A stretch of 64,000 nucleotides of DNA from an uncultured Acidobacteriota bacterium (GCA_963770895.1 CAVYRF010000002.1:3456001-3520000), one strand, 5' to 3'; positions 21,371-37,055 are shown, numbered from the stretch's first letter. A program made the numbers and translations. Notes: a model not told the origin generated them from the sequence alone.

Positions 21371-21937
21371 CTGCGATGCCGCCCGGAGGCTCCCAGGGTG
21401 GCGGCAACCCTCATTTCCGGGATGCAGATGACAGCCTCAAGCGGGTGGTTGCGGCGTGGCAGTGCGTCGGGCGCCCGGCAATCGCTGCGGTCGCGCGCAC
21501 ACGTGTCGGCGCCCGCCGCAGACTTTAGGAGTAAGCCCCGCGCCGGTGTCCCCCGCGGCTGAGCCTGCCGCGCTGTTACGAGTCGCGAAAGGGGGACACC
21601 GGCCGGCGAGCGCTGTGCGGCGCACTGCCGCAATCGCGGGCTCGCAGCAAGATCTGGCACAAGGGGGCGTCTCCTTGCGCCTCGTCAACGAAAGCATACG
21701 GACCGTCCGAGCAAGCAGGTGCGGTTCGTGTGCGAAGGGCTGGCTGTTGCCCGAGCGCGCACCGTGGGCTCAGGGTGTGGCGAGTGCGCGGTTGTGTGGG
21801 CAATGATCTTGCTGGGGCAGATGGATGGAGTGGCCGCTATCGGCAGGGGTGAGAAGCGCACGGGGGCCGCGGTGCGCGCGAGGCGAGAGACTCGAAGGAG
21901 ATCGGACGGGTGCCGTTCGTGCCGTCGATCTACATCT

Positions 21938-23355: not shown

Positions 23356-24102
23356 CTACGACGTCCCAGGTGGGCCGCCGGGGATTTGCAGCCTTTCCTC
23401 CCATTTCGCCAGGTCTACGCCCTTCACCAGGAGCCAGAGGGCTAGCGAGGACTCCGCGATGAGGGGCGGCAGCATGACGGCGGGGAAGAGCATCGATGCG
23501 AGCCCGGGGGCGAGAAGCAGCGCGAAGCTGTTCAGCAGGTAGCAAACGCCGGCGGCCTGCATCAGGAATCCGAGGGTTTTCGGCAGGAAGCCGGAGCGGC
23601 GGATCAGGTGGCCTTCGAGGAGGCACACCGCACCGAAGAAGATCAGCCCGATGCCGAAGCCGTGGTCATGGGCCCTGAGGCAGACGTACGTCAACGCATA
23701 GAGCTGCTGCGGCGTCCACGCCTGCAAGTACGCTGCGTCGCTCAACAGGAACAACGGCAGGACGAGCATGATCTTGTTGGCAACGAGCACGGCGGTCTGG
23801 ACCACGTTGAACAGCAACACGCTCAACGCCAGATTGCGGTTGACCGTCCTGAACAAGAGATACAAGGCCGTCATCACCACGACATCACAGAGATGCATCA
23901 ACAGGTCCGCCGCGATGCTTGCGCGCCACAACGATTGTGAAGCCACGATGTTGTGGGCGGTTGCCGCCGCGTCGCCGGTGACGATGATCTTGCCGCGGAC
24001 GAATACCTCCGCCCATCCTCCCGCCACGATGAGAACCAGGTAGAGAGCGCCGGCGATTCGTGCATAGAGCTGAGGTGACTGCTTTGCCGGAACCTTCGCC
24101 AT
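23356..24102 (-). CDS. DUF4386 family membrane protein
   Basis: ARIAGALYL...GDAAATAHNI...IFFG...SGFLPK...E..LALWLLVKG. Confidence 0.85.
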   Translation of the reverse strand: MAKVPAKQSPQLYARIAGALYLVLIVAGGWAEVFVRGKIIVTGDAAATAHNIVASQSLWRASIAADLLMHLCDVVVMTALYLLFRTVNRNLALSVLLFNVVQTAVLVANKIMLVLPLFLLSDAAYLQAWTPQQLYALTYVCLRAHDHGFGIGLIFFGAVCLLEGHLIRRSGFLPKTLGFLMQAAGVCYLLNSFALLLAPGLASMLFPAVMLPPLIAESSLALWLLVKGVDLAKWEERLQIPGGPPGTS

Positions 24103-24308
24103 TTCTTTTCCTTACCCGGCCGCGTCACTCTACCGATCGGGCGGGTGACTCGGTTGGTCGCTGTTGAAGTCACTACGGAGCGGCCGGTCGAATAGTTACA
24201 GGGTTGGGCAATCCAGGGCCCGTCCGGGTCCTTGTCCTATAACTTGGCGTCTGGAAACCACTAAGGGGGCAGCTCATCCAGAGCAAACGTCATGCGGAGG
24301 CAACGCAC

Positions 24309-25400
24309 ATGAGATCTCGCGCAATGTTCTACGCGCTCTCCCAGGCGGTCCGGGTCGGGGGGCAGGTCACGAGGTGGGCGCGGCGGCTTGCGCTCTTCGG
24401 CGTCGTGGCGGCGGTCGCCTTGCCCGCGGGGCTGGAAGCGCAGGCCTCGCGGCACTTGCAGCAGGCGGACATCTGGTTCCATCCCTTGCCGTCGGCGTCG
24501 GCGTGGCCCACCGGGGAGCCCGTCGGCGGGTCGACGGATTTTCGCGCGCTGTTCAAGGGCAACGCCCCATGGCCGCGGGCGATCGCGCGGGTCAAGGTGG
24601 TGGGGATGTACGCCGCCTGGATCGTTGCGGCCAGCGATCAGGAATTGAGACAAACTGTCAGTTTTCTCAACCAGCACCACATGGGGATCGAGATCGAAGC
24701 GCCGGCGCTGCAGGCGCCCCCCACCTGTGGCTCAGGCGTGGAAGGGTATGTGCCGTGGGGCCAGTCGCTCTACGATTTCACCCTTGCCTACCTGAATCGG
24801 TTGAAAGCGCTCGACGCCCAGGTGGCCTTCGTGAAGGTCGACGAACCGTTTTTCTTCGGCAGCATCTCGGACGACCCCCGCGCCTGCCGCCTGCCGGTCG
24901 AGGAGGTGGCCTTGGCGGTCGGGCAGTACGCGCGGCTGGTCAAGAGCGTCTATCCTCATGCCGACGTCGGCGACGTGGAACCGATCATCGAGGGCCCCTA
25001 CCCTGTCGATGTCGTGAGCGCGATGGCACAGTGGCACGACGCCTACCGGACGGTCACCGGGGCGCCGTTCCCGTTCTTCTTCGCGGACATCGATTTCAGC
25101 AACCCCGCGTGGCCGACGATCGTCAAGACCCTGGAGGACCAGACGCGGCAAAGCGGCATGCAATTCGGCATCATCTACATCGGCGACGAGCAGGACACCT
25201 CCGATGCGGAATGGGCGGACAAGGCCGTGGCGCGCTTTCGGATCTACCAGCAAGAGAGCGGCGGCCGGCCCGACCACGTGCTGTTCCAGTCCTGGGAGCC
25301 GCACCCGGCGCACTGCCTGCCGGAAACCGATCCAACCACCTTCACCGGCGTGATCGACGCCTACCTCCGCGAGATGACGCCCTACGGCAGCTGGCCCTAA
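24309..25400 (+). CDS. Secreted hypothetical protein (possibly a glycoside-hydrolase-like barrel)
   Basis: 363 aa with a signal peptide and the motifs VDEPFF, VGDVEP and LFQSW. Start uncertain. Confidence 0.65.
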   Translation: MRSRAMFYALSQAVRVGGQVTRWARRLALFGVVAAVALPAGLEAQASRHLQQADIWFHPLPSASAWPTGEPVGGSTDFRALFKGNAPWPRAIARVKVVGMYAAWIVAASDQELRQTVSFLNQHHMGIEIEAPALQAPPTCGSGVEGYVPWGQSLYDFTLAYLNRLKALDAQVAFVKVDEPFFFGSISDDPRACRLPVEEVALAVGQYARLVKSVYPHADVGDVEPIIEGPYPVDVVSAMAQWHDAYRTVTGAPFPFFFADIDFSNPAWPTIVKTLEDQTRQSGMQFGIIYIGDEQDTSDAEWADKAVARFRIYQQESGGRPDHVLFQSWEPHPAHCLPETDPTTFTGVIDAYLREMTPYGSWP

Positions 25401-25487
25401 CGGCTCGTTTCGGGCTCTGGCCAGCTGCTCTGAGCGGGACTGCTCCTGGATAAACGGCAAAGTGCGCCGGCCTGCGGCGCCGCCTGG

Positions 25488-25524
25488 CTTATGAACGCAG
25501 CCCCAGGGGTGTGTGCACCATTTC
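25488..25524. repeat. Quasi-palindromic putative recombination site S1
   Basis: CTTATGAACGCAG-CCC-CA-GGG-GTGTGTGCACCATTTC. Aligns without gaps to S2-S4 and marks the start of the low-GC block. Confidence 0.75.
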
Positions 25525-26031
25525 TTACTGACCCTTCGCGGGCGGCTTCCTCGCCCGGACTACCCCGAGAGTCGTAGAATCTGAAGACTCTTCCTTTTCA
25601 ACTTGCCTCGGAGACAGTCTATCCAAGACCAGATCCACTAGAATCCTGGCGGTCTTCTCTGAATCGGCAAATTGGCTTAAGTGACTTTTCACTTCAGCGA
25701 CCAACTCCTCTCTTGCGCCGCGCTCTGGCAAATTAATCGAGCTTCCGACAAACTCATGTAGCTCCTGTCGCAGCTGGTCCAACGACTTCTCTGCCTTGTC
25801 GCCAGTGCCGATGCGCTTTGAAATCAAACCGCTAGTGACGGCAACAAAGATCGGGATCAAAGCCTTGCAAACCAGTATATCCACGAGGATACTGCCATCT
25901 AGATTGAGCGCCTGGCCTACGCCTGATGCTCTGGCTGTAATGGTTGCTGTGATCACTTCGCCTGCTGCTTTAAAGCAGGTTGCAACTTCATGCCTAGTTA
26001 CGGTGGCGCGATTAGAACCTCCGGCATCCAT
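25525..26031 (-). CDS. Hypothetical protein (low GC, one hydrophobic segment)
   Basis: 168-aa ORF whose start overlaps the upstream gene stop and whose stop abuts site S1. Confidence 0.6.
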   Translation of the reverse strand: MDAGGSNRATVTRHEVATCFKAAGEVITATITARASGVGQALNLDGSILVDILVCKALIPIFVAVTSGLISKRIGTGDKAEKSLDQLRQELHEFVGSSINLPERGAREELVAEVKSHLSQFADSEKTARILVDLVLDRLSPRQVEKEESSDSTTLGVVRARKPPAKGQ

Positions 26032-27575
26032 CAGAACCTCCGCGTTTTGTAAAAGTCAGACCATACCTGTCTGGCGAAGCACTGTGGAATTTCGGATGAA
26101 TGCGGAATCGATTCGCAGCTTCCAGATCTAAGAGGGCAGGGATAAAACGCATACTGCGTAGCCACGGGGCAGCAGAATTCCGTTCCCGACCAAACGGACT
26201 CCGAGAGGCCAATGAAGATCAATCGCCCAAGATGGGTATCCATTACTGAATGGGGAGACGCCGGTATAGTGTAGGCCGTTCGTCCTTCCTTCGTCTTCTC
26301 TGCTGTAATGAAGAGCGGTGCCGCGAGTTCAACCCTTTCCTTAGTGCTGAACATCGGATGTAGGCCCAGATCCATCCCGATCGACAGAAAATGAGCTCGA
26401 TAAACGCGCAGCGGATCTTTTAGCAAGAGCTCCATGCCTTTGATTCGGGCCCGGTGAAAGATTTCAAAGAGGTCCCGCACGCCTGTTAACATGGCGAGCT
26501 TTAACAGCTCTTCAAAGAGCTGTATCCAACGCCTAGATACCTCGTCGTGACGAAGGAACGAAGTACCGCTGCTCGGTCCTGACGCAAGCCTGTTGCAGTA
26601 GTTGATATGATTTACAATCAACCCCATAAACTCAGTATGTAAATAAAGCTCGTTAAGGTTGAACTCATTACGATGCTCCATGATGCATGGCATCACCGAG
26701 CCTGCGAGCTTCAAGAAACGGACCGCTGGTACCACGTCTTGTAAGGCAGAGCCATTGTTGAACTCATCCCCCTCTGGCAAAGGGCAAGTATGGAGTGCAA
26801 GGTCAAGCAGGAAAAGAAGAAGGCCGAACTCCGCAGCCCGAGGACAGTGTGGATACAATTGGTGTTGTCTGTTGGCTGTATCGAAGCGAATGGCCTCGAC
26901 GTACTTTTTGAAGGTATGAATGACCCTTTGGCAAGAAGTCATTCGCTCAGGCCGGAAGTATGGGGCTAGATCATTCACAACAGATTTGCTGAAAGCGTCT
27001 TTATAATGGAGCATCAAGTGGGCGATGCGGCGTTCGGTCAAGATGGCAGCGTGGCATTCAAAGAGTTCTTGTCCGGTCAAGCCAAAGCTGATCTCCAATC
27101 TATCCGCGATCGACGGGTGAGCGCGACTTTCGGCTTCCAGCACCCTGTCGAGGGTCCGCGAAGAGTAGATAATCTCCTGGAGGAAATGCCCTTCTTGATG
27201 GCGACCGTGTATCCGATTAGCAAAAGAATTATCGACCATCTCAGGGCTACTGTCGCTACCGCGGTTAGATTCGGGCTTGAGTCCTTGGGAAGCGTGAACG
27301 GCTATCGCGTTTTCGTCGGCATTAAGCTGCACCCAGGCACAGATGCCGAGTGTGTGGTCCTGGATAAAGTGAGTGGACTCATGGAGGAGCGTTACGAGGC
27401 CGAGAAATGCATCATGAGTCTTGAATTCCGTGCCCTCTTTGAGGGTACCGTCCGGCTTGAAGAGGTCAAGAGGGTTGGACCTCTCAAATGCGGTATACCA
27501 CAGGCGGTCTCCAATCCTGTGATGGCCGAGTATTGGGTTGGTCATAGGAAACCTGTGAAGCATTGCCTCGGACAT
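26031..27575 (-). CDS. Hypothetical HEXXH metalloprotease-like protein (low GC)
   Basis: 514-aa ORF with LLHESTHFIQ, a downstream ELFECHA and a Cys-rich C-terminus. GC is clearly lower than the flanks. Confidence 0.7.
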   Translation of the reverse strand: MSEAMLHRFPMTNPILGHHRIGDRLWYTAFERSNPLDLFKPDGTLKEGTEFKTHDAFLGLVTLLHESTHFIQDHTLGICAWVQLNADENAIAVHASQGLKPESNRGSDSSPEMVDNSFANRIHGRHQEGHFLQEIIYSSRTLDRVLEAESRAHPSIADRLEISFGLTGQELFECHAAILTERRIAHLMLHYKDAFSKSVVNDLAPYFRPERMTSCQRVIHTFKKYVEAIRFDTANRQHQLYPHCPRAAEFGLLLFLLDLALHTCPLPEGDEFNNGSALQDVVPAVRFLKLAGSVMPCIMEHRNEFNLNELYLHTEFMGLIVNHINYCNRLASGPSSGTSFLRHDEVSRRWIQLFEELLKLAMLTGVRDLFEIFHRARIKGMELLLKDPLRVYRAHFLSIGMDLGLHPMFSTKERVELAAPLFITAEKTKEGRTAYTIPASPHSVMDTHLGRLIFIGLSESVWSGTEFCCPVATQYAFYPCPLRSGSCESIPHSSEIPQCFARQVWSDFYKTRRF

Positions 27576-28227
27576 TGAGCGATGTCCGACGAACGGATCT
27601 GTGCCAGGAGGTCAAAATCACACTATAGCGTCTCGGCCTTTCTTGGCTGAGAGAACCTTGGTGACGTGAGGTTCTCCTCCTCTCTTCACCGGCTTACACC
27701 AAATGATAACATAGTGCGGATTCCGGCGAAGGCGACCACCCATTCCGACGGAAGGCGACCACCCGTCGGAGCGAGGCGGTGAGCGGAGGCTCATGGTTGG
27801 TTGAGGTGGTCGGCTTGGGCTTCTCCTGTGGTCCTTTTTCAGTGTATATGACCTCGTCGCCGGGGTTGTGGAAGGTCGTGGTAACCGGCGAGGGCGGGTG
27901 GTGGAGGGCGGGTGTGGTGGGGGGCCGGGAGCCGGTTTCCAAGCGGCTGTGGGAACGGCGGACCGGGGGCCGCGGCGGGCGGGGGCAGCGGAGCGTAGCG
28001 ACGCGGGCGGCCCACGTTGGGTCCGCGGTTTCCATCAGCCGCGGCACCTTCCACAGCCCATGCGTGCGTTGGGGGGTGGTGGGGGTGGGTGGGGGACGGG
28101 CCGGGCGGTGGGGCGGCCGGGCGGCGGCCGGCCGCTGTCGAGGTCTCGCCGGACGCCATAGGCGAGGCGCTGGGGCTCGCGGGGGGGCGGGGGGCACCAG
28201 GCGCCGCCACGGCGCGCCGCGATCGCG

Positions 28228-28980
28228 TCACGACGGCCCCTGGGCCGGCGCCGGCGCCTTGTCCTTGCGCTTCGACTCGCCCTTAAGCGGCAGCTCGTAG
28301 GCGTTGTGCACCAGACGGTCGAGCACGGCGTCGGCCAGCGTGGCGTCGCCGATCGCATCGTGCCAGGCGGCGACCGGCAGCTGGCTCGTCACCACCGTCG
28401 AGCGCCTGCCGTAGCGATCTTCGAGGATCTCCAGCAGATCACGCCGCTGAGCGTCGGTGAACGGATGCAGACAGAGGTCGTCGAGCACGAGGACGTCGGC
28501 CCGGGCAAGGTTGGCCAGCAGCTTGGAGTACCGGCCGTCCGCTTTGCCGGTGGCAAGCTCGGACAGCAGCCGTGGCACACGGTGATACAGCGCGGTGAAG
28601 CCTTCCCTGCACGCTTTGTGCGCCAGCGCACAGGCCAGAAAGCTTTTCCCCGTGCCGGTTTTCCCCGTAATCAAAATGTTAAGGTGTTGGGTGATCCACT
28701 GGCATGAGCACAGTGCCAGGAACAGCGCCCGATCGAGACCGCGCGGCAGGCGCAGGTCCACGTCTTCGACCGCGGCGGCCTGGCGCAGCCGTGCCTTGGC
28801 GAGACGGTCCTTCAGTCGGCGGTTCTCGCGCTCCGTCATCTCGCGATCGACCAGCAGCCCCAGGCGCTCGGTGAAGCCAAGCTCGTCGATGCCGGTCATC
28901 TGCAGCTGCTCCTCGAGCCCCTTGGCCATGCCGGTCAGCCGCAGGGCCTGGAGCTTGTCGAGCGTCGGATGGGTCAGCAT
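28228..28980 (-). CDS. istB: IS21 helper ATPase IstB
   Basis: GKTGTGKS, LVLDD, LEILEDRY and ADAVLDRLVHNA. Confidence 0.95.
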   Translation of the reverse strand: MLTHPTLDKLQALRLTGMAKGLEEQLQMTGIDELGFTERLGLLVDREMTERENRRLKDRLAKARLRQAAAVEDVDLRLPRGLDRALFLALCSCQWITQHLNILITGKTGTGKSFLACALAHKACREGFTALYHRVPRLLSELATGKADGRYSKLLANLARADVLVLDDLCLHPFTDAQRRDLLEILEDRYGRRSTVVTSQLPVAAWHDAIGDATLADAVLDRLVHNAYELPLKGESKRKDKAPAPAQGPS

Positions 28981-30533
28981 GGCTTCTGCTCCCCGCCGTA
29001 GTACGAAGCGCCGCGCAGGTTCTCATGCACGAGGGGTCGCCGCGCCGACTCGGCGGCCAGATCCATCTGCCGATCCAGCCCTCCCTGCAGGATGGAGCGC
29101 ACGCTGCGGAACGACGCGCCTTCGATCTCCAGCGCCAGCTGGCACGCCGCTTCCAGCCGCTCGTTGCCATACCGCTGCCCGAGCCGCAAGATCCCCAAAC
29201 ACGAGCGGAAGCCATGCTGCGGGTGCACTCGCGTCGACATCACCTGCTCGATCAGGCCGGCGACCGATGGCCCCGTCGTCTGCGACCACTGCACCAGCCG
29301 CTCGGGCGTCCACTCCGCATACGCCCGATGCGGCCGCGGCATGTGCTCGTGCTGCGTCGTGTGGGCTCCCCGGCGAAAGCAGCGCACATGGCTCGCCACC
29401 CGCTTGCTCTTGGCGAAGAACTCCACCGTTCTCGCGCTCAGCCGCACGTCCAGCTGCTGGCTCACCAGCTGGTACGGCACGCTGTAATAGTGGCCGTCGA
29501 CTTCGACGTGGTAGTCCGCCACGACGCGCCCCTTTTTCCACTCGGCGTAGCTGAAGCCCGACGCCGGCAGCGCCCGCAGAGCCGGCCGCTCCATGCTCTC
29601 AAAGAGCGACCGGCGCGAGCCCTCAAGCTTGCGGAATTGACGCTCGTTCAAGCGTATCAAAAGCATTCCAATCGCCTCGTTGAGCTCAGCAAGAGAAAAG
29701 AACTTCCGGTGCCGCAATCGGGCCAGGATCCAGCGTTCGACGACCTGCACCCCCACCTCCACTTTGGCCTTGTCGCGGGGCCGCCGCACGCGCGCCGGCA
29801 TCACTGCCACGCCGTAGTGCAACGCCAAATCGTGATAGGTAGGGTTCAGCTCCGGCTCGTACCGGCACGGCCGGCTGACCGCCGACTTCAAGTTATCGGG
29901 AACCACCATTTCGGTTAGGCCGCCGGCGAACTCAAAAGCCCGCACGTGCGAGCCGATCCAGTCCGCCAATCCCTGACTCCACGTCGCCTCCGCGAAGGTG
30001 TAGTTGCTCGCCCCCCACACCGCCACGAAGATCTGCGCCGCGTGCACCTCTCCCGTGCCGGCGTCGACCACCGGCACCGTCGCGCCGCAGTAGTCGACGA
30101 ACAGCTTCTCGCCAGCCCGATGCACCTGGCGCATCGACAGGTCCACCCGCCCCCGCCACTGGCCGTACAGCTCGCAGTACCGGCTGTAGCCGTAGCCGTG
30201 AGGCTCCCTCTCCCGGTACTCCTCCCACAGCAGCGACAGGGTCACCCCTTTGCCCTTGAGCTCGCTGTGCACGGCCGCCCAGTCCACCGCTGGCCGTCGC
30301 GCCGCCGGCACCTGCTCGACCACCGGGTAGAGCCGACGCTCCAGCGCCTCCTCGCCCAGCTCCGCCGCCACGGACCAGTCCAGCCCGCTCCTGCGCGCAC
30401 GGGCCACGCACTCCACAACCGTCGTCTTGCCTATCCCGCAGCAGTCCGCCACCTGCCGCTGGCTCAGACCGCAGACCCACAGCAATCGCAACATCTCTCG
30501 AATCTTTCTCACGTTCACTCTCCGTGCCGGCAT
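28974..30533 (-). CDS. istA: IS21 transposase IstA
   Basis: GEKLFVDY, VPDNLKS, PRDKAKVE (DDE motif) and the C-terminal HENLRGASYY. Confidence 0.95.
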   Translation of the reverse strand: MPARRVNVRKIREMLRLLWVCGLSQRQVADCCGIGKTTVVECVARARRSGLDWSVAAELGEEALERRLYPVVEQVPAARRPAVDWAAVHSELKGKGVTLSLLWEEYREREPHGYGYSRYCELYGQWRGRVDLSMRQVHRAGEKLFVDYCGATVPVVDAGTGEVHAAQIFVAVWGASNYTFAEATWSQGLADWIGSHVRAFEFAGGLTEMVVPDNLKSAVSRPCRYEPELNPTYHDLALHYGVAVMPARVRRPRDKAKVEVGVQVVERWILARLRHRKFFSLAELNEAIGMLLIRLNERQFRKLEGSRRSLFESMERPALRALPASGFSYAEWKKGRVVADYHVEVDGHYYSVPYQLVSQQLDVRLSARTVEFFAKSKRVASHVRCFRRGAHTTQHEHMPRPHRAYAEWTPERLVQWSQTTGPSVAGLIEQVMSTRVHPQHGFRSCLGILRLGQRYGNERLEAACQLALEIEGASFRSVRSILQGGLDRQMDLAAESARRPLVHENLRGASYYGGEQKPC

Positions 30534-30989
30534 CTCGCTCCCTTCGTCGATGGAGACGAGCATGCCAGAGGTACGGAGCCGCCGCTTGTTGTCACCGCCC
30601 TTCTCGATCTCGATTCCGATCGAAGGCGACCACCCTTCCGGGGATGGCGACCACCCTTCCGGGCCAAGGGCTAAAAGTGGTCGCCTTCAGACTGGAATGG
30701 GGTGGTCGCCTTCCGTCGGAATCAGTGGTCGCCTTGCGACCGGAAACGGTGGTCGCCTTCGACCGGAATACGCATAACATAGCGCGGTAACGACACCGTG
30801 GGAGGGGTGCAGGCCGGAGCCCGTCCCACGGCCGGGCGCGCCGGTCGGAGCTCAGCGCCGCCGCCAGAAGCCTCGGTCCCTGGATACCTTTTCCGGTCCG
30901 GCGTTGGAGCGCGGCCTCTTCCTCGCGGAGGCACCTTCAGTCCGGGAACCCTCTTACCAGGAAGAAAACCCCGGAGCCGGAGCTATACG

Positions 30990-31229
30990 GTGTCATCTGC
31001 ACGCCGAAAATGGACCCAGTTGCAGGCTAAATTCCCCCCCTCGGAGGCAAGGGCGATGGAGCGGGAATGGTCCAAGCTCCCCGCGGCGCCTGAAGGCGCC
31101 GTGGAGCGGGAGTTGATCGGCGAACAGGTCTGGTCGGCGATGGAGGTCCTGCGGGGTAAGGCTTATCGAAGAAGGCGATTCGTCCGTCTGTACAAGAAGC
31201 CTTTGGCCTTTTTCCTCGACAGCGAGTGA
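30990..31229 (+). CDS. Small hypothetical protein
   Basis: 79-aa ORF from a GTG, convergent with the XRE gene. No recognisable motif. Confidence 0.3.
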   Translation: MSSARRKWTQLQAKFPPSEARAMEREWSKLPAAPEGAVERELIGEQVWSAMEVLRGKAYRRRRFVRLYKKPLAFFLDSE

Positions 31230-31242
31230 CGCCTGGCGAGGC

Positions 31243-31617
31243 TTACCCGCGCGAGGCAAGCCACCGCTCGAAAGCTCGCCGGATGCGCGGGCATGGGTGT
31301 TTAATCTCGTCGCGCTCCCAGGCAGAGACGGTCGATGGGTCGAGACCGAACCGGCGGGCCAGCGCTTCCGCAGAGAGTCCCGCGGCCTGCCGCGCGGCCC
31401 TCACGTGTCCGCCAAAGGTTTCTGGCTCCGGCCGGGGGTCGTAGCCGAGGAAGGCGAGGATGCCGGGCAGGAAGCGCAGCCCCGGCGTGCCCCGCCCCGC
31501 CTCCCAACTCGCGAGGCTCGGCTGCGAGCAGCCGATCTCGCGGGCCGCGTGTCGCTGGCGGAGGCCCCGGTCAAGGCGCGCCCGCCGGAGATGCTCGCCG
31601 AAGGTCGCCGGCGCCAC
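31243..31617 (-). CDS. XRE-family regulator with two HTH domains
   Basis: TFGEHLRRARLDRGLRQ...SWEAG and TFGGHVRAARQAAGLS...VSAWE. The frame stays open upstream through site S2. Confidence 0.8.
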   Translation of the reverse strand: MAPATFGEHLRRARLDRGLRQRHAAREIGCSQPSLASWEAGRGTPGLRFLPGILAFLGYDPRPEPETFGGHVRAARQAAGLSAEALARRFGLDPSTVSAWERDEIKHPCPRIRRAFERWLASRG

Positions 31618-31666
31618 CGGGTAACCCTGCGGATTCGACTTCCGTCCTCGTAAGCGGACACGAACA

Positions 31667-31703
31667 CTTATGCACGCAACCCAAGGGCTGCGTGCACCTT
31701 TTG
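31667..31703. repeat. Quasi-palindromic putative recombination site S2
   Basis: CTTATGCACGCAA-CCC-AA-GGG-CTGCGTGCACCTTTTG. The right arm is identical to S4 over 29 bp. Confidence 0.8.
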
Positions 31704-31915
31704 TGATCCGCTTGCGGGGCAGGATTCTTCGCCCTGGCTATCCTCAGAACCGTCGCACCCTGGGCGAGCACCTCAAGTAGCCGAAGTCCCAGGGGAGCCG
31801 AGGCGGAGGCGCCGGTGCACTTGGTAAGGAGCAGGGGCCGACGCAGTAATCTCGTCGCTCGGCCCGAGGTGTAGATGGGTTGCTATTCATGCGGTGAATG
31901 GATATCATTCGCGGC

Positions 31916-33151
31916 GTGAATGAACCATCCCGCACCCTGTCGCGATTCCTTGCGCCCCGCCTGGCCGTTCTCCTCAAGTCGTTTCCGGCAGTCGTCCTCA
32001 CCGGCGCCCGGCAGACCGGCAAGACAACCCTGGTGCAGCAACTGCCGAGCAAGCCGCAGCGAGCTTATCTCACCCTCGACGACCTGGATGTCCTGGAGCG
32101 CGCGCGGCTCGAACCGGCGGCGCTCGTTGCCAACGCCGAGGGGCCGCTGACGCTCGACGAGGTCCAGCGATCCCCGGACCTGCTATTGGCGGTCAAGCGG
32201 GCAATCGACCAGCGCCGCACGCCGGGCCGGTTCCTGCTCACTGGTTCTGCCAACCTGCTTCTGATGCGGCGAATCTCCGAATCGCTTGCGGGGCGGGCTG
32301 CCTATCTCACGCTCTGGCCGCTCACTCGTCGTGAGCAGCTTGGCTTGGGGACCACCGGTGCTTGGTCGCGCTTGCTGGCGGCCGCTGATCGCGACTGGCC
32401 TGCGGTGCTTTCCGCCGAGACTGCCCCGGAGGAGGACTGGCGCGCGCTGGCGCGACGCGGCGGCTATCCGACCCCCGCCCACGAGTTGGACGATGCCGAG
32501 GCGCGGTCCGCCTGGTTCGCCGGCTATGTCAGAACCTACCTCGAACGCGATCTGCTGGAGATCTCGGCGGTGGCGTCGCTGGTGGATGTTCGGCGACTGA
32601 TGCGGGCGATCTGCCTGCGGCTCGGGGGCCTGCTCAATCAGACGGAGGTGGCCCGCGATATCGGGATGTCCCAACCCACGGTGCATCGCCACCTCAACCT
32701 GCTCGAGACCACCTACCAACTGGTCCGCCTGCCTGCCTTCACTGTCAACCGCACGAAGCGCCTGCTCAAGACCCCCCGAGTCTTCTGGTGCGATACGGGT
32801 CTGGCGATGCACCTGGCAGGCGAAACGACACCGCAGGGCGCTCACCTCGAAAGCCTGGTGCTTCAGGATCTGCTGGCCTGGCGGGACTCATCACCGGTGG
32901 AGGCCGAGATCCTGTACTGGCGCACCGTGGCGGGCGACGAAGTGGACTTTGTCATCGAGCAGGATGGGATGCTGCTTCCCATCGAGGTGAAGACCGGGCG
33001 CCGCCCTTCCCTTGCGGATGTGCGCTCGCTCAAGTTGTTCCGGCAGGAGTACGCGGACCGTGCACGCCCCGGCCTGCTGCTGCACACCGGAAGCGAGATT
33101 GCCTGGCTGGCCGACGGAGTGCTGGCAGCGCCATGGTGGCGGGTCTTCTAG
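31916..33151 (+). CDS. AAA+ ATPase with a DUF4143 (PD-(D/E)xK-like) C-terminus
   Basis: GARQTGKT, LDEVQR, LLTGSA, GGYP and EVDFV...IEVK. Confidence 0.9.
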   Translation: MNEPSRTLSRFLAPRLAVLLKSFPAVVLTGARQTGKTTLVQQLPSKPQRAYLTLDDLDVLERARLEPAALVANAEGPLTLDEVQRSPDLLLAVKRAIDQRRTPGRFLLTGSANLLLMRRISESLAGRAAYLTLWPLTRREQLGLGTTGAWSRLLAAADRDWPAVLSAETAPEEDWRALARRGGYPTPAHELDDAEARSAWFAGYVRTYLERDLLEISAVASLVDVRRLMRAICLRLGGLLNQTEVARDIGMSQPTVHRHLNLLETTYQLVRLPAFTVNRTKRLLKTPRVFWCDTGLAMHLAGETTPQGAHLESLVLQDLLAWRDSSPVEAEILYWRTVAGDEVDFVIEQDGMLLPIEVKTGRRPSLADVRSLKLFRQEYADRARPGLLLHTGSEIAWLADGVLAAPWWRVF

Positions 33152-33342
33152 CCCAGCGGCCCGTGACGAGAATGCGGAATCCGACGATGGCGGTACCCGT
33201 TTCGCCCGCAAGGCGACCATCCTGGTCGGAGCGCAGCGACGGTGAAGCTCGGATTGGGTCAAGCTGCGATGATGGCCTTTCAACGACTCGCCTGATCGCT
33301 CATCGGAAAGCCAAGGCCGCGATCTTCGGCAAACGACCACCG

Positions 33343-34593
33343 ATGAGGCAGAAACGAAGCAGCGAGAAGGAAGCGGCAGCCCTCGATCAGCTGATCGCCG
33401 AAATCATCGTCGACGCTTACGGCGACGACGAGCAGTTGTGGGCTTTCCGCGAAGCGTTCGAGCAGAACGTCGACCTGCCGTGCGACGGGTTCGTGATCGG
33501 TGAGCCGGTGTCCGTCACAGCGTTCGACTACGACGGCAACCCGCGGCGCGGCCTGATCGCCACTTGTCGTCGTGACGACGGATCGAACCACGTGATGGCG
33601 GCGGCCGATGTCGCCTTCCCCTCGCAGTCCATCGGCGGGCGGCACATTGCAGCCTACCGGAGGTGGCTCGGCCTCGAGGCACTGCCTCCTGAGGTCGAAC
33701 CCGAATCTGGCCGCAGGCGCGGGCACAAGTCCGCGGCGAGCCACCTCAACCCGACGGGGCCAGTCGAGCTCGTCGCTCTCTCGGTCAAGGAGAGGGCCGC
33801 GCGTTGCCGCCTTCTCGGAAGCGAGCGCGTCCTCACTCTGCGTGCAAGCCGGCTGTGGGAAGTCGTCCCAGGTGAGGTCCTGACCGTCCGTCCGCGCAGG
33901 CAATGGAGCTACGCCGGCCATCCGTATCTTTCGGGTGAAGTCGAGTCGTCGCGGCTCGACGTGGCGGCGCTGGGGCTCGTTCCGCTCAGGATGGAGAACC
34001 GTGGAATCTGGAACCCGGCGGACGAGTACTGGGGAGAGGCGGACGAGCCGGTCGAGGAGTGGGCCAAGTCGATCATTGCCGGTGGCCGCCGACCGGCGTT
34101 CGAAATGGAACAAATCCTGCCGTCGTCAGATCCAGATGATCCCGACTCCGACCCAATCTGCGTGTCCAACGACCTCAAGGAGGCCGGTGCAATCAGCGAA
34201 GCGCGAGCTCTGTTGATGAAGCTCTGCGAAGCAGATCTACGCTGCTTGGACGCGCACGCCCATCTCGGCAATCTTGTGTTCGACGACAGTCCCAAGCAGG
34301 CGATCCGGCACTACGAAGCCGGCGTTCGCATCGGGGAACTCTCGCTTGGCCCCACGTTCGACGGCCTACTGCCATGGGGCCTCATGGACAACCGTCCGTT
34401 CATCCGCTGCATGCATGGATTCGGCCTGTGCCTCTGGCGACTCGGTCGATTCGACGAGGCAGGGAGCGTCTTCGACCGGATGCTTTGGTCGAACCCTTCG
34501 GACAACCAAGGCGTGCGATTCCTGATCGACGAAGTGCGTCGTCATACGCGCTGGGAAGATCGTGCGTCGGAGCGGCAGCGGCCTTCCTTATAG
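33343..34593 (+). CDS. CcbP-like N-terminal domain plus TPR-like protein
   Basis: EIIVDAYGDDEQ...IAAYRRW, with C-terminal LDAHAHLG...NRPFIR...NPSDNQGVR. Confidence 0.7.
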   Translation: MRQKRSSEKEAAALDQLIAEIIVDAYGDDEQLWAFREAFEQNVDLPCDGFVIGEPVSVTAFDYDGNPRRGLIATCRRDDGSNHVMAAADVAFPSQSIGGRHIAAYRRWLGLEALPPEVEPESGRRRGHKSAASHLNPTGPVELVALSVKERAARCRLLGSERVLTLRASRLWEVVPGEVLTVRPRRQWSYAGHPYLSGEVESSRLDVAALGLVPLRMENRGIWNPADEYWGEADEPVEEWAKSIIAGGRRPAFEMEQILPSSDPDDPDSDPICVSNDLKEAGAISEARALLMKLCEADLRCLDAHAHLGNLVFDDSPKQAIRHYEAGVRIGELSLGPTFDGLLPWGLMDNRPFIRCMHGFGLCLWRLGRFDEAGSVFDRMLWSNPSDNQGVRFLIDEVRRHTRWEDRASERQRPSL

Positions 34594-34675
34594 GAGGGGC
34601 CGGCGTCGACTCTCTCACGGTCCGAGGCACTTCTCGCAGCTCGGGTGCGGGTAACGTGCCCTCAAAATGAGACGG

Positions 34676-34715
34676 CAAATTGCCAACAAACCCCCAGGGG
34701 TTCATAGATAAGTTG
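34676..34715. repeat. Quasi-palindromic putative recombination site S3
   Basis: CAAATTGCCAACAAAC-CCC-CA-GGG-GTTCATAGATAAGTTG. The left arm extension CCTCAAAATGAGACGGCAAA matches S4. Confidence 0.75.
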
Positions 34716-34936
34716 CCATGTCATCCTTCGAGGACGAAAAGTAAGCCGGGGGTTATCCCGCGGACCCAAAAGACTCCGGGCGAGCACCTGCGGTGGATCT
34801 CCGTTGCGTCTCCCGCCCGAAAGCGACGATCTATTCCGACGAGACAAGCACCGATTCCATGGGAGAGACTCAACCCGAGTCGTTTCGCGGATCATGGAGC
34901 GATTCGATCACAGGCGGAGCAGCAGCACGAAGTAGG

Positions 34937-35317
34937 TTATTCCGGCGGCTGCCGTGAGACCGATGACAACCTTCTCCTGCATGGGGAACCACACAAATTG
35001 GCGATTCTTTGTTCGGTTGTAAGCTGGTAATGACCAGCCAGGCCAAGCGCTTGACCAACAAAGAGAAGAACGCCGATACCAAAAGCTGCACGTGCCATTG
35101 GGGTCGTGGCGAGACCGAGGACAGGTAGCAGGACGACACCCGCCACAAACGTTAGCATTCCCACTATATTTACATAATCAGATGGAACGAGCCATGGGAT
35201 ACTGCCCTCGTCCCCTACTGCGGCTTCCCGTTCCAGCCGCCATTTGAAGAATGTTACCTGAAAACCGAGAATCAACCCTGTGGGCGTCCATAGGTCACGA
35301 AGAACTGGGTCTATCAT
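34937..35317 (-). CDS. Small membrane protein (low GC)
   Basis: 126 aa with three hydrophobic segments. The 3' end may be frameshifted. Confidence 0.55.
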   Translation of the reverse strand: MIDPVLRDLWTPTGLILGFQVTFFKWRLEREAAVGDEGSIPWLVPSDYVNIVGMLTFVAGVVLLPVLGLATTPMARAAFGIGVLLFVGQALGLAGHYQLTTEQRIANLCGSPCRRRLSSVSRQPPE

Positions 35318-35350
35318 CCACTATCCTCAATTCTGCTGCTCTGTGAAAGA

Positions 35351-35773
35351 TCACGTTTCTCCTTCGGCAGCGCGCAAAGCGGCCAGGACTGCCCTGCATG
35401 CGTCGATCAGATCACCGAGCAGCGTTTCGTTGATGTCGAGGATTCCCTCGTATTCCGCGAGATTCCGTTTCTCGTGGGCCTTAGCCAGTACTCGCCACAC
35501 TGAGGGTGGGATGCCGAGGGTATGTGGGAGCGTTTGAAAAACGAGATAGCGGCTCTCAGAGCGATAGCCTAAACGGCGCAACGCAGCAAGTGCGAGGACG
35601 TGTGCAGCGTTATAAGCGAGATCAAAGCGGCTCTCGATCGAAAGCTCCGGCTTCGGGGCGTCAGCCAAGCGGGCCTCTCCCGACTGTCGAAGGCCCGCGA
35701 TCTCACCGGCCGAGGGCGCTTCGTGCTTGAGCTTGCCGGCCCGTACCAGATTCTCCAGCTCAGGTGAGGTCAT
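35351..35773 (-). CDS. HEPN-like protein
   Basis: RFDLAYNAAH...HEKRNLAEYEG. Overlaps the upstream nucleotidyltransferase. Confidence 0.75.
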   Translation of the reverse strand: MTSPELENLVRAGKLKHEAPSAGEIAGLRQSGEARLADAPKPELSIESRFDLAYNAAHVLALAALRRLGYRSESRYLVFQTLPHTLGIPPSVWRVLAKAHEKRNLAEYEGILDINETLLGDLIDACRAVLAALRAAEGET

Positions 35774-36362
35774 CGTCTGACCCGATCACGAAGAGCTTTC
35801 GCTGTGAAGCGATCCGGGCCGCAAACGAGTCGTCTTGCGCGACCTTGGCTCGCCAGTCGGCAAGGCTCACTATCGTCGGATTGACTGGACGAGCCAGGAG
35901 GGCTTCAGCCTGCTGCAATGCCTCGAACAGATCCGGGTAATGAAGCAAGTCGGAGATCACCATGAGGTCGATGTCGCTTCGGGCGTGGTCGTTTCCCTTG
36001 GCAACGGAGCCAAAGACGAATGCGGCGCGGATGCTTTCTGCCATCGCGCTCAGAGCATCCCGAAGTGGGTCAACGATGCCCACAGTCTTTGCGACTAGAC
36101 CTTGCAGCTCAGAGAATACCGGCGATCCTCGCCGGGCCTGGTAGTGCTTCTGATTCCCGACGCGAGTCACCTCGACCAACCCCGCCTCCTCCAAACGTGA
36201 GAGCTGACGGTGGACTGCGCCAACGCCGCCATTCACCAACCGGATTAACTCGGAGCTTTGGAAGCGGCGGTCGGGCTGTCCGAATAGGAATCTTAGAACA
36301 CGCTGCTGAATGGGCGTGAAGAGCGCATCGGCCAGGCCGCTCTCGGAGGTCTCTCTTCCCAT
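35760..36362 (-). CDS. HTH-nucleotidyltransferase (MNT) protein
   Basis: LADALF...wHTH, then AFVFGSVAKG...SDIDLMVI. Confidence 0.85.
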   Translation of the reverse strand: MGRETSESGLADALFTPIQQRVLRFLFGQPDRRFQSSELIRLVNGGVGAVHRQLSRLEEAGLVEVTRVGNQKHYQARRGSPVFSELQGLVAKTVGIVDPLRDALSAMAESIRAAFVFGSVAKGNDHARSDIDLMVISDLLHYPDLFEALQQAEALLARPVNPTIVSLADWRAKVAQDDSFAARIASQRKLFVIGSDDDLT

Positions 36363-36503
36363 TTCGGGTAGGATTATACCCAATCGGAAGCTGGTGGGCG
36401 ATGGCTGAGTGCGCCCAAGGCGCCCCTTCAGGAGGCGGTTACCGAGGGTCCGGGGGTGCCGCTGGGCTCCTGGACGGGGAAGGGCGTCCTCAGAATGAGA
36501 CGG

Positions 36504-36543
36504 CAAAAGGGCAACACACCCCCAGGGCTGCGTGCACCTTTTG
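36504..36543. repeat. Quasi-palindromic putative recombination site S4
   Basis: CAAAAGGGCAACACAC-CCC-CA-GGG-CTGCGTGCACCTTTTG. Confidence 0.8.
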
Positions 36544-36624
36544 TGATCCGCTGCGGGGCCGGCTTCCACGCCCTATTTGCCACTCCATCTCTCCGCACCC
36601 ATTTGCCGACCACCTGAAGAGCGT

Positions 36625-36897
36625 CCGGCCTCCGTCCAGGAAGCTCGCGGAGGCGGGCCAGAACTCGTGATACTCCGTCGCCGTCGCTCGGCGCAGAAGC
36701 TCGACCGCAACCATCGGAGAGACCGGGCTCGGATAGCGAGACTGGCTGAGCACGCGGATGAAGCCGTTCTGCGTCACGGCACACGAGGCCCAGCCCAGGC
36801 GGATCTCGGTCGAGATCCACTCGCGGGCGTGGCGGTGATCGACGTGATCGCGATCGAGCAAGGCGACCAGCGCGTTGACATCGAGCAGAGCGCGCAC
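36625..36897 (-). pseudogene. 3'-truncated PIN (VapC) toxin
   Basis: MRALLDVNALVALLD...TQNGFIRVLSQ...HEFWP. PIN-like sequence stops near aa 90, and the ORF then reads through S4. Confidence 0.7.
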
Positions 36898-37040
36898 TAC
36901 CCGAGATCCTCCTCGCGGAGACGGTCGACCATCTCGTTCGAGATGACGGTGCCTCGGGGAGGGAGAGGTTGGAAGCCGTAGAAGGCTTCAGATTCAGCGA
37001 AGTCGCCGGCTTGGCCCTGCGGGTGACACCTGAGCCCCGC
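36897..37040 (-). pseudogene. 5'-truncated VapB-like antitoxin
   Basis: Reads ...EAFYGFQPLPPRGTVISNEMVDRLREEDLG*, with an upstream in-frame stop and no start codon. Confidence 0.55.
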
Positions 37041-37055
37041 TGCTCAACTGTTCGG

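Follow-up and report, generated by a model that had tools for sequence, protein, structure and literature searches.

The four sites S1 to S4 in the analysed window, a stretch of 64,000 nucleotides from an uncultured Acidobacteriota bacterium, probably serve as attachment sites for integrative elements of one family, which would be mobilised by a large serine recombinase (LSR). The window contains four sites and three cassettes with toxin-antitoxin and accessory genes plus an IS21, and XRE-side arms that point inward delimit each cassette. Thus, cassettes in a soil Acidobacterium are flanked by stubs of XRE gene starts, and a regulator gene would start inside the docking site.

Site S1 (25483..25590) is centred on CA at C25504-A25505, S2 (31589..31781) on AA at A31683-A31684, S3 (34638..34796) on CA at C34695-A34696 and S4 (36416..36628) on CA at C36523-A36524, all read on the + strand. 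Their inner halves are palindromic, and the central dinucleotide is the predicted cleavage position. S1, S3 and S4 share the same polarity. The deviating AA centre of S2 would be incompatible with the neighbouring CA sites. At S1 the left half is degenerate and half-site-like over the inner ~20 nt only (13–22 nt; inverted repeats I4 and I10), while S1R is an XRE-side arm of type A' with an in-frame stop, truncated ~85 nt from the centre. S2L (type B) runs on into the intact XRE gene and faces S2R, a type A stub that is ended by a TAG right after ..GEHLK. S3 joins a type C arm of ~57 nt on the left to a frameshifted type D arm of ~100 nt on the right. S4L (type C, 108 nt) is an XRE stub followed by a nucleotidyltransferase gene, and S4R (type A, 104 nt) adjoins a truncated PIN gene. 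One arm in the window is still joined to an intact XRE gene and six are stubs. Outward translation from the centres gave VRLRGRKSNPQGYPVAPATFGEHL for S2L, continuing into the XRE open reading frame 31243-31617(-), FVIRLRGRILRPGYPQNRRTLGEHLK followed by a stop for S2R and LTLRGRLPRPDYPESRRI followed by a stop for S1R. S4L gave ..PRTLGNRLL, S3L CRLILRARYP and S4R PLRGRLPRP; S3R was frameshifted. A preliminary description of this DNA had placed four sites at these positions and had read versions of one peptide-like motif outward from them; both the positions and the peptide strings were reproduced.

The homology of the arms was examined with an nhmmer profile built from 23 XRE-upstream stretches of other genomes, this genome's sequence being left out. 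The profile matched the 64-kb window at exactly seven places (E 5e-14 to 2e-4), namely S2R (5e-14), S2L (1.7e-12), S4L (1e-9), S3R (5e-7), S4R (2.7e-6), S3L (1.5e-5) and S1R (2.1e-4). No match to this independent profile was obtained for S1L in the 64-kb window. This agrees with the earlier count of seven related arms out of eight. As a pairwise control, each arm was locally aligned with S2L alone and compared with 500 dinucleotide shuffles over the extended part (nt 23–110). Only S2R (p<=0.010) and S3R (p<=0.004) beat the shuffles; S1R, S1L, S3L, S4R and S4L aligned with S2L no better than shuffled sequence (p 0.27–0.82). The postulated arm alignment thus stands at profile level for seven arms and fails pairwise against S2L, except for S2R and S3R. 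At the sequence level, the arms are diverged types with homology visible only to a profile. A 330-nt model was matched over its full length by S2L alone, and S2R, S3R, S4R and S4L stopped 98–108 nt from the centre. With a 120-nt profile S3L was matched out to 34638 (~57 nt from the centre) and S1R to 25590 (~85 nt). Across the genus the stub ends are scattered over model positions 62–235. The ending of four window stubs within 98–108 nt is unexpected under random decay and counts against the explanation preferred here.

The XRE gene (31243..31689, - strand) encodes two Cro/C1-type HTH domains. Its canonical open reading frame (31243-31617) begins with GTG, and the frame of an N-terminal extension stays open up to the site centre (~31689), where no canonical start codon is present. 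The 124-aa product contains two HTH stretches (Pfam HTH_31, 5.5e-21; HTH_3, 1.2e-19) with P22 C2, 434 repressor/Cro, HipB and ICEBs1 ImmR as relatives in the PDB. Unlike this HTH part, the N-terminal extension gave no match. Either a regulator or a directionality factor had been suggested for XRE; as a double-HTH protein of the Cro/C1 type, it would fit the role of an element regulator. The outer arm encodes a conserved XRE N-terminal extension of ~30 residues (PFC..LRGR..P.P.GYP..P.TLGEHL). In a comparison of codon-level with DNA-level conservation, the arms contained 0 stops in the XRE frame, whereas 15 and 7 were counted when the other frames were read. Variation among the arms peaked at codon position 3, whichever frame was aligned. 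This pattern indicates coding constraint, and the outer arm reads as true coding sequence that evolves as protein. The alternative proposal of a non-coding DNA-binding array is consequently not supported; only the inner 30–35 nt also behave as a half-site. The putative crossover centre precedes the earliest conserved codons of XRE by 10–20 nt. Whether a half-site always precedes XRE homologues had been raised as well. In this genome it does for seven of eight tblastn hits, all of which cover the N-terminus; the eighth, lacking the N-terminus, comprises residues 59–122 only (35% identity). Of 24 XRE homologues from other genomes, 22 possess the conserved upstream extension, L056 and L060 being without a recognisable one.

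The inner 30–35 nt on each side of the central CA or TG correspond to the half-site found at LSR genes. Twelve LSR homologues occur in six of the ten genomes of the genus, one of them (L032) cut short. The half-site is present at all 12 intact LSR gene ends that were examined, 11 within the genus and one (L086) from another genus. Its register is fixed, with AAGATN and 23 nt preceding a CA at six loci and a TG at the other six. The LSR reading frame ends in ..EIEFSL.CLP..PPP.., runs into the half-site and carries a tail past the centre that differs at each locus. The proteins contain the Pfam domains Resolvase and Recombinase. Their catalytic domain resembles TP901-1 integrase (2e-24), with a longer match to SPbeta SprA/YokA (1e-9). 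The best NCBIfam matches were CcrB (4.5e-36), CcrC (9.3e-28) and XisF, all under the family cut-offs. Assignment to CcrA/CcrB/CcrC was rejected, CcrB scoring 124.6 bits and CcrC 97 bits against cut-offs of 900. The LSR genes of this genome lie at C1 121838-123367 and C2 5378252-5379748. The recombinase is thus located outside the window and had been missed by the preliminary description. Around the array, a Pfam search of 35 open reading frames (14169-48622) detected no LSR or other site-specific recombinase, and only IS21 was found.

Eleven XRE/LSR pairs share a contig, and in ten of them LSR follows XRE in the same orientation at a distance of 22–50 kb; the exception is C2 5357771/5378252. 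XRE is thus found at one end of these elements and LSR at the other, which supports the earlier suggestion that the element terminus coincides with the 5' end of XRE. The order was represented by 201 genomes, which are related and hence not an independent sample; 14 contained both genes, 4 LSR only, 13 XRE only and 170 neither. Split target genes were met in two relatives. In G066 XRE comes directly after the 5' part of comM (Mg_chelatase profile 1-163), and the 3' text of this gene (NPCPCGHLGD..) is found behind LSR. In G015 a RAYT-like gene is divided into two parts (NF047646 positions 9-68, E 0.003, and 79-144, E 4.9e-8), between which a 29-kb XRE...LSR unit is situated. Hybrid sites in a split target were encountered in these relatives only, and the window array yielded no split target. 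This genome has an intact comM gene, and its site text is unlike the comM-type target. The second candidate element of this genome (C2 5357840 to 5379810) has ends of opposite polarity when both are read on one strand, the first with CA and the last with TG or the reverse, and LSR would therefore invert rather than excise it. Among 65 open reading frames (>=150 aa) of two candidate elements no relaxase or VirB4 family was detected at E<=1e-5; the search yielded only TrwB/TraG-like ATPases, a primase, a methylase, RadC and DUF932, and conjugative transfer is thus not supported. In the metagenome contigs of four public runs, which stop at the sites without alternative joints, no excision, inversion or empty-site junction was found.

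This genome contains 21 arms at 14 arm-defined sites, plus two LSR-linked sites. They are clustered, lie beside toxin-antitoxin genes and coincide with XRE gene starts at no fewer than 14 loci; some sites are without any XRE gene. A blastn search detected the repeat in all 9 congeners and in none of 51 genomes from other genera. Similar cassette arrays are present on C1, on C2 and in congeners, and the C1 array (68144, 71846, 123380, 125324) has CA at all its centres. The arms always face a partner at a palindromic centre of fixed geometry, and over the whole genome four arm types occur in the pairings B+A, C+D, C+A, A'+C, A'+B and B+D. S2 and S4 have an identical right arm from the centre onward and different left arms (types B and C). 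S3 and S4 have their left arms in common up to the centre and differ on the right (types D and A). Since the sharing switches at the centre, we take this position as the putative exchange point.

These observations bear on another explanation, according to which the palindrome serves XRE genes as operator/promoter alone and is bound by the double-HTH protein, the opposed stubs derive from divergent XRE paralogues by decay and no site-specific recombination occurs. The site is located where a promoter is expected, two Cro/C1-type HTH domains suit a pseudo-symmetric operator, and the palindrome lies upstream of every XRE hit of this genome that covers the N-terminus. Nevertheless we regard this explanation as improbable. 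It does not account for the switching of arm types exactly at the centre, for sites without an XRE gene, for the fixed-register half-site at 12 of 12 LSR ends or for the split comM and RAYT-like genes around XRE...LSR units. The two functions are not exclusive, as XRE may also bind the recombination site.

Cassette 1 (25506..31682) is of low G+C content and consists of two open reading frames, an inserted IS21 copy and the XRE gene. The two frames, of 168 aa (25525-26031, - strand) and 514 aa (26031-27575, - strand), contain no Pfam family. The IS21 copy (27715-30774, istA/istB) is 99.9% identical to C2 1639678-1642736, and its inverted repeats (27729-27764 and 30700-30735) are unrelated to the arms. 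Cassette 2 (31685..34694) carries an AAA_14/DUF4143 ATPase gene (31898-33151, + strand) and a solitary IS21-like end (33173-33263). It also includes a long open reading frame without Pfam family that reaches 34593. Its segment 31864-33267 is 99.6% identical, in inverted orientation, to C2 5355350-5356752. Cassette 3 (34697..36522) contains two small open reading frames on the - strand, of 126 aa (34937-35317) and 140 aa (35351-35773, without Pfam match), as well as a gene for a wHTH-nucleotidyltransferase that lies within 35760-36569 on the - strand (Polbeta 1.6e-8, NTP_transf_2 4.6e-6). This layout resembles an MNT-type toxin-antitoxin pair. Beyond S4 lies an antitoxin and PIN toxin module (36626..37023, - strand), whose PIN gene is cut at 36626, the start of arm S4R, and covers only positions 2-80 of the 120-position profile. 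The module is 89% identical to C1 123591-123988, where an intact antitoxin and PIN copy (C1 123591-124146) is located beside a site.

Diverged inverted ends had been proposed to bound each cassette, and the arms do point inward at all three. Inward-pointing homologous ends also occur at no fewer than three further cassettes of the genome, and genes beside arms are truncated (PIN at 36626, DUF885 at C1 1999610), as would be expected if the cassettes were transposon- or MITE-like units with terminal inverted repeats of 60–110 bp whose transposase inserts beside existing ends. We consider such units very unlikely, because the sole transposase of the cassettes belongs to IS21 with its own unrelated inverted repeats, the arms are always paired at a palindromic centre of fixed geometry and consist of XRE coding sequence, and LSR genes end in the same half-site. 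An integron-like array, in which a tyrosine integrase acts on attC-type sites in their folded single-stranded form, would share the promoter-poor, toxin-antitoxin-rich cassettes split by imperfect palindromes, but is the least credible explanation, since no tyrosine-family integrase was found around the array, single-strand folding beats shuffles only at S2 (z -3.3) and S3 (z -2.9), with pairing within ~+/-30 nt, and not at S1 (z -0.07) or S4 (z -0.30), and each site joins arms that differ in type and hence are not co-evolving stems.

To return to the preferred explanation, a complete element carries at one end the two-HTH XRE gene, which reads inward, and at the other LSR, which reads outward. 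Its site is a pseudo-palindrome in which a C-run and a G-run enclose the central CA (or TG), with a half-site of ~30–35 nt on each side, strand exchange presumably taking place at the central dinucleotide. The LSR-side half-site encodes the last LSR codons, and the XRE-side half-site overlaps the first codons of the ~30-residue XRE extension, so that any junction with an element's XRE end would carry an XRE gene start. The array may have been built by repeated integration of circles into existing sites, with subsequent deletion and decay. Most likely the cassettes represent accreted remnants and not one element type with terminal inverted repeats. The elements fall into two polarity classes, CA or TG when read from the LSR side to the XRE side, and an element of one class could enter the XRE-end junction of the other only inverted. 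The head-to-head arms would arise, we infer, because there are two such classes. XRE-side arms at both ends of a cassette are not the canonical attL/attR product, which counts against the preferred explanation. The LSRs at C1 121838-123367 and C2 5378252-5379748 might in principle act in trans to excise or reshuffle these cassettes, S1, S3 and S4 having the same polarity.

SCC elements and composite islands of staphylococci are moved by the large serine recombinases CcrAB or CcrC and integrate at the 3' end of rlmH (orfX). They form tandem cassettes bounded by copies of the attachment sequence, and many of the cassettes have no recombinase and rely on supply in trans. The present system likewise has a large serine recombinase, with CcrB and CcrC as its best NCBIfam matches, and the window array likewise consists of att-flanked cassettes without a recombinase. 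The array would fit accretion and decay as in SCC-type composite islands. In contrast to SCC, the LSR is no Ccr protein, integration would take place at the XRE-side junctions that resident elements provide (in relatives, at comM or a RAYT-like gene), the sites are pseudo-palindromic with an arm encoding a regulator N-terminus, and the host is an Acidobacterium. In the ICESt1/ICESt3 family of Streptococcus thermophilus, ICEs and IMEs accrete into resident att sites and decay to CIMEs that can be mobilised by a related recombinase. Successive integration at a resident att site and small att-flanked remnants would be common to both systems, whereas ICESt1/ICESt3 rely on tyrosine integrases and on att cores in direct repeat at the 3' end of a tRNA or gene instead of a serine recombinase and head-to-head XRE-side arms.

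Phage large serine integrases act on short, imperfectly palindromic sites whose polarity is set by the central dinucleotide. The LSR shares the catalytic, recombinase and zinc-ribbon/coiled-coil regions of the integrases of TP901-1, A118 and SPbeta (SprA). Unlike phage sites, the site described here overlaps two element genes (LSR 3' end and XRE 5' end), and in place of distinct attP and attB its half-sites are all alike and the elements occur with both central-dinucleotide polarities. The myxophage Mx8 gene intP contains attP inside the integrase coding region, Mx8 Int being a tyrosine recombinase. Similarly, the LSR 3' end overlaps its own predicted attachment site, and the C-terminal tail therefore depends on the junction that it faces. 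A regulator gene start built into the other half of the site distinguishes the present system from Mx8. The ssrA-specific genomic islands of Dehalococcoides are reported to have a serine recombinase as well, with several islands at one site, and unlike the elements described here they target the tmRNA gene (PMC3146451).

The host genome comprises 8.16 Mb in three contigs with 71% G+C, and the window corresponds to positions 3456001-3520000 of contig C2. Four imperfect palindromes (S1 to S4) lie between 25.5 and 36.6 kb of the window, where the G+C content around the sites is lower than elsewhere (0.51–0.66 versus about 0.70). This region carries an IS21 copy (27715-30774), the minus-strand XRE gene for a Cro/C1-type protein with two HTH motifs (31243-31617), a DUF4143 ATPase gene, a nucleotidyltransferase gene with a small partner ORF, a truncated PIN module and several ORFs without a Pfam family. 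The IS21 transposase was the only recombinase found among the 35 ORFs at 14169-48622. The preliminary description had read versions of one peptide-like motif outward from the site centres and proposed that each cassette is bounded by inverted ends. The readings were reproduced for seven of the eight arms, and inward-pointing XRE-side arms indeed bound each of the three cassettes. The left arm of S2 (S2L) still has the XRE gene attached. S2R is a stub, an arm without the rest of the gene, which ends at TAG after GEHLK; the same stop occurs in a copy of the related genome G003. S4L is an XRE stub ahead of the nucleotidyltransferase gene, and S4R adjoins the PIN gene, which is cut at 36626. An intact PIN copy adjoins a site on contig C1 and, in the relative G007, sits between two sites about 1 kb apart. 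Four stubs of the window end 98–108 nt from the centre (model positions 126–136), which is tighter than decay predicts. Since stub ends across the genome and its congeners spread over model positions 62–235, a fixed outer arm boundary or a functional 100-nt arm is not claimed.

Homology of the arms to the XRE gene start was determined with an nhmmer profile built from 23 XRE homologues of other genomes, covering the 120 nt that end with the ..GEHL codons. In the 64-kb window this profile matched at exactly seven places, S2R, S2L, S4L, S3R, S4R, S3L and S1R, with E-values from 5e-14 to 2.1e-4, and gave no match to S1L. The proposed homology of seven of the eight arms is thus borne out independently, and this profile, free of any sequence from the genome under study, is decisive for arm homology. 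Pairwise alignment to S2L alone, beyond the core and against 500 dinucleotide shuffles, upheld the similarity for S2R (p <= 0.010) and S3R (p <= 0.004) and failed to do so for the other five arms; this comparison was too weak for five of seven arms, and the profile test was used instead. An iterated profile revealed 21 arms at 14 arm-defined, mostly clustered sites in the whole genome, which holds two further sites linked to a recombinase gene. With blastn, all nine congeners gave matches to the repeat, in most cases more than one, and no match was obtained in a sample of 51 genomes representing other genera of the same family and order.

For the sites and their arm motif, an attC- or REPIN-like structure, a conserved DNA-binding array, as the preliminary description had offered, and coding sequence of XRE were considered. 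Single-stranded folding was better than that of shuffles for S2 and S3 only, over about ±30 nt, which argues against the structural site and adds nothing to the recombinase model set out below. An Rfam search of 24000-38000 returned only two sub-threshold matches to miRNA models, inside the IS21 end repeats. The DNA-binding array gave way to coding constraint when codon-level and DNA-level conservation were compared. For this comparison the 26 codons before ..TLGEHL were taken from 27 XRE-upstream regions (22 of other genomes, five of this one), leaving out L056 and L060, whose extensions do not align, and the copy at C2 5357, a near-duplicate of S2. The XRE frame contained no stop codon, while the two alternative frames had 15 and 7. 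When the DNA was simply aligned as such, the pairwise differences amounted to 0.41, 0.47 and 0.62 at the first, second and third codon positions, respectively, and after alignment through a wrong frame the peak of variation followed the true third position. Consequently, the arm motif is a real N-terminal extension of XRE.

This extension is conserved down to 35–40% identity across the order, with a consensus of roughly (L/W)PFC.(L/V).LRGR(I/K)P.P.GYP..P.TLG(E/D)HL. Judged from the aligned genes, its start codon has no fixed position. Among 30 sequences, 12 have a TTG at or next to the L that precedes PFC or its equivalent, several more have a start codon elsewhere, and six (L041, L042, L044, L048, L049 and L052) lack a canonical start between the centre and GEHL. 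The XRE gene of the window has a GTG only after the extension. The annotation of the XRE genes is corrected accordingly, as the called start leaves out 30 conserved N-terminal residues encoded upstream of it.

Outside the window, two sites of this genome directly follow a gene encoding Resolvase and Recombinase domains, which is itself preceded by a TrwB/TraG-like ATPase gene. By its domains the encoded protein is a large serine recombinase (LSR). The catalytic domain matches the TP901-1 integrase (2e-24) and residues 149–443 align with SPbeta SprA; the best NCBIfam matches were CcrB, CcrC and XisF, all far below cut-offs. Twelve LSR homologues, one of them cut short (L032), were found in six of the ten genomes of the genus. 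At the other 11 genus loci and at L086 of another genus, the LSR frame enters the half-site in one register: AAGATN, 23 nt, a central CA (6 loci) or TG (6 loci), then a G-run and the second half. The second half is an XRE-type arm of type A, C or D, an intact XRE gene (L039) or unrelated DNA (L030, L038). An LSR gene end followed by AAGATN, 23 nt and CA/TG thus provides a simple marker for the element family. Complex prediction for LSR (alignment A1) and XRE with its extension (alignment A2) gave scores of 0.02 and 0.03, which speak neither for nor against XRE as a directionality factor.

In a sample of 201 genomes of the order, XRE homologues occurred in 27 and close LSR homologues in 18 (both in 14, LSR only in 4, XRE only in 13, neither in 170), counts which are descriptive only, as the genomes are related. 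Where both genes lay on one contig within 60 kb, XRE was upstream of LSR on the same strand at a distance of 22–50 kb in 10 of 11 pairs, the exception being C2 5357771/5378252. Split target genes were observed at the element ends in relatives. In G066 the 5' part of comM (ChlI and Mg_chelatase profile positions 1–163 of 207) lies directly ahead of XRE, and on another contig LSR is followed by the comM text NPCPCGHLGD... In G129 the 3' part of comM (profile positions 158–206 and Mg_chelatase_C) adjoins XRE in opposite orientation; this XRE gene is present four times with identical search scores (L054; C5 695060, C5 708220, C6 3616685 and C6 3634209). In G015 a 29-kb unit from XRE to LSR lies between two fragments of a RAYT-like gene, which match complementary parts of the NCBIfam model for REP-associated tyrosine transposases (9–68, E 0.003, and 79–144, E 4.9e-8; both below cut-off). 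Pfam gave nothing meaningful on these fragments, and the complementary matches come from NCBIfam only. In the genome studied here comM is intact, and where the comM-type site would be its sequence is different; the elements of this genome sit at sites made of element ends.

Two candidate elements were delimited in this genome. The first, at C1 71846-123380 (51.5 kb), has CA on the plus strand at both ends. It begins with XRE, a second HTH gene, RadC and DUF932, continues with several TrwB/HerA-like ATPases, a primase, a methylase, a second serine recombinase and several IS, and ends with a kinase-TPR gene, an ECF sigma factor, a large PKD/He_PIG protein, a TrwB/TraG-like ATPase and LSR. The kinase, sigma factor, PKD, TrwB and LSR backbone is shared with the second candidate, C2 5357840-5379810. 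Because the end sites of the latter have opposite central dinucleotides, it would invert as delimited, not excise. Next to LSR (L072:2021-10025, L073:4500-12453) the backbone encodes a Ser/Thr kinase of 911–931 aa with TPR repeats, the ECF sigma factor, an ORF of 328–371 aa and the PKD/He_PIG protein of 1138–1149 aa. No relaxase or VirB4 family was reported among the 65 ORFs of the candidate elements, and they are therefore termed integrative with no claim of conjugation.

The position of strand exchange is indicated by sites that have one arm type in common and differ in the other arm, the switch being the centre. The right arms of S2 and S4 are identical from the G-run outward and their left arms belong to types B and C; in S3 and S4 the left arm is the same as far as the centre, and the right arms belong to types D and A. 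The four arm types are paired genome-wide as B+A, C+D, C+A, A'+C, A'+B and B+D. Within arrays the orientation of the central dinucleotide is constant, with CA in S1, S3 and S4 and in the four sites of the C1 array; the centre of S2 is AA. Repeated integration of circles into existing sites would produce an arm switch at the centre and one dinucleotide orientation per array, exactly the pattern observed. The window array points to accretion and deletion, which left remnants without a recombinase, and in this resembles composite SCC islands and CIMEs. The lack of a recombinase in the window, the narrow spread of the four stub ends and the findings on unoccupied sites and public soil runs given below count against this reading.

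After canonical integration only one end would carry an XRE-side arm, and the opposite end would carry the LSR-side half. As elements exist in two polarity classes, we infer that an element of one class could enter an XRE-end junction of the other only inverted, giving head-to-head XRE arms. A circle excised between two head-to-head sites would itself carry such a site and propagate the pattern. The outer halves of the first and last C1-array sites, at C1 68144 (L001) and C1 125324 (L002), are reverse complements of one another at 11 of the 12 inner bases, as would be expected if the whole 57-kb array had been inserted into a single palindromic target and had separated its halves.

The XRE reading frame crosses the crossover point. 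Some arm types, namely type B, to which the XRE of the window belongs, and the type of G003 L041, have no canonical start on the XRE side. The partner half offers an in-phase ATG or GTG 27 nt before the centre, with ATG in 7 of 12 LSR-side halves; in L029 a GTG lies one codon further in the LSR-side half, and at the site at C2 4620618 an in-phase GTG is present in the partner arm. It is conceivable, and in our estimate improbable, that the attachment site acts as a translational switch, that integration state is sensed through the two genes in it, and that the recombinase-less, arm-bounded cassettes form a serine-recombinase system mobilisable in trans. In that case, synthesis of full-length XRE with its conserved extension would require an XRE end linked to an LSR-side half or one like it, as in an excised circle or at tandem junctions, and the C-terminal tail of LSR would change in the same events.

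Serine-recombinase elements, attachment sites overlapping the end of a recombinase gene and arrays of att-flanked remnants are known, for example from SCC/Ccr, CIMEs and Mx8 intP; the Dehalococcoides ssrA islands are reportedly a further case. To our knowledge, little has been described of mobile elements in Acidobacteriota. A search of the openly accessible literature gave no description of this element family or of LSR integration into comM; the "comM" matches in PMC8627217 and PMC12286644 were the word "common". Distinctive here are a regulator gene with a conserved N-terminus encoded inside an att half-site, mutually similar half-sites with two polarities and the resulting head-to-head cassette arrays. 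The analysis defines a family of serine-recombinase integrative elements of soil Acidobacteriota together with the anatomy of its attachment site and its targets, namely comM, a RAYT-like gene and the ends of resident elements. It explains the arrays of toxin-antitoxin and accessory genes separated by 200-bp palindromes in these genomes. As one att site holds both the start of a regulator gene and the end of a recombinase gene, a link between integration state and expression is directly testable. Interchangeable half-sites with two polarities could also interest users of serine integrase tools.

Unoccupied sites could not be reconstructed by synteny, because synteny is not kept in the orthologous flanks of relatives. 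In the near-complete congener G003, the best matches to the two sides of the window array fall on separate contigs or at a great distance from each other, and in five congeners there is hardly any conservation of the sequence flanking the C1 array. Logan contigs of four public soil runs, checked over 24500-37500, break off at the sites, as repeats would lead one to expect. At S2 all loose contig ends derive from the paralogous site at C1 1999659. Joints without a cassette or with an inverted one were not seen in these runs, which is no proof of their absence. In cassette 1, the part with 0.51 G+C (25802-27537), which comprises a 514-aa ORF and the end of a 168-aa ORF, both without a Pfam family, had no cover in any of the four runs covering the rest; it may be strain-specific or else have been filtered out. 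Cassette 2 has a structural variant: contigs of three runs (X2, X3 and X20) skip 770 bp in a long unannotated ORF at 33679-34450 and have seven different letters where the ends join.

Further repeats were observed in the window. A repeat of about 200 bp at 21709-21913, unrelated to the sites, has more than 15 copies of 80–89% identity on C1 and C2 (e.g., C1 2036823, 2042802 and 809727; C2 756668 and 4747959). The segment 21462-21603, which contains a GC-rich hairpin, is 89% identical, inverted, to C1 125381-125522, the flank just outside the outermost C1-array site. It is followed at about 21645-21672 by a possible relic half-site, judged by eye. If this is real, the left edge of the island may be near 21.67 kb, and the island would then include PIN modules, a DUF4386 gene and a 363-aa ORF. 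Inside the IS21 copy about 250 bp (27841-28095) encode proline-rich ORFs; this segment also stands alone at many places in the genome and in congeners with 85–92% identity, so that the IS seems to contain a small nested repeat element. Finally, the DUF4143/AAA_14 ATPase module (31864-33267) has an inverted copy of 99.6% identity at C2 5355350-5356752, beside a paralogous XRE site. Since the XRE and site there are only 94% identical to those of the window, the ATPase module was moved or converted recently and independently.
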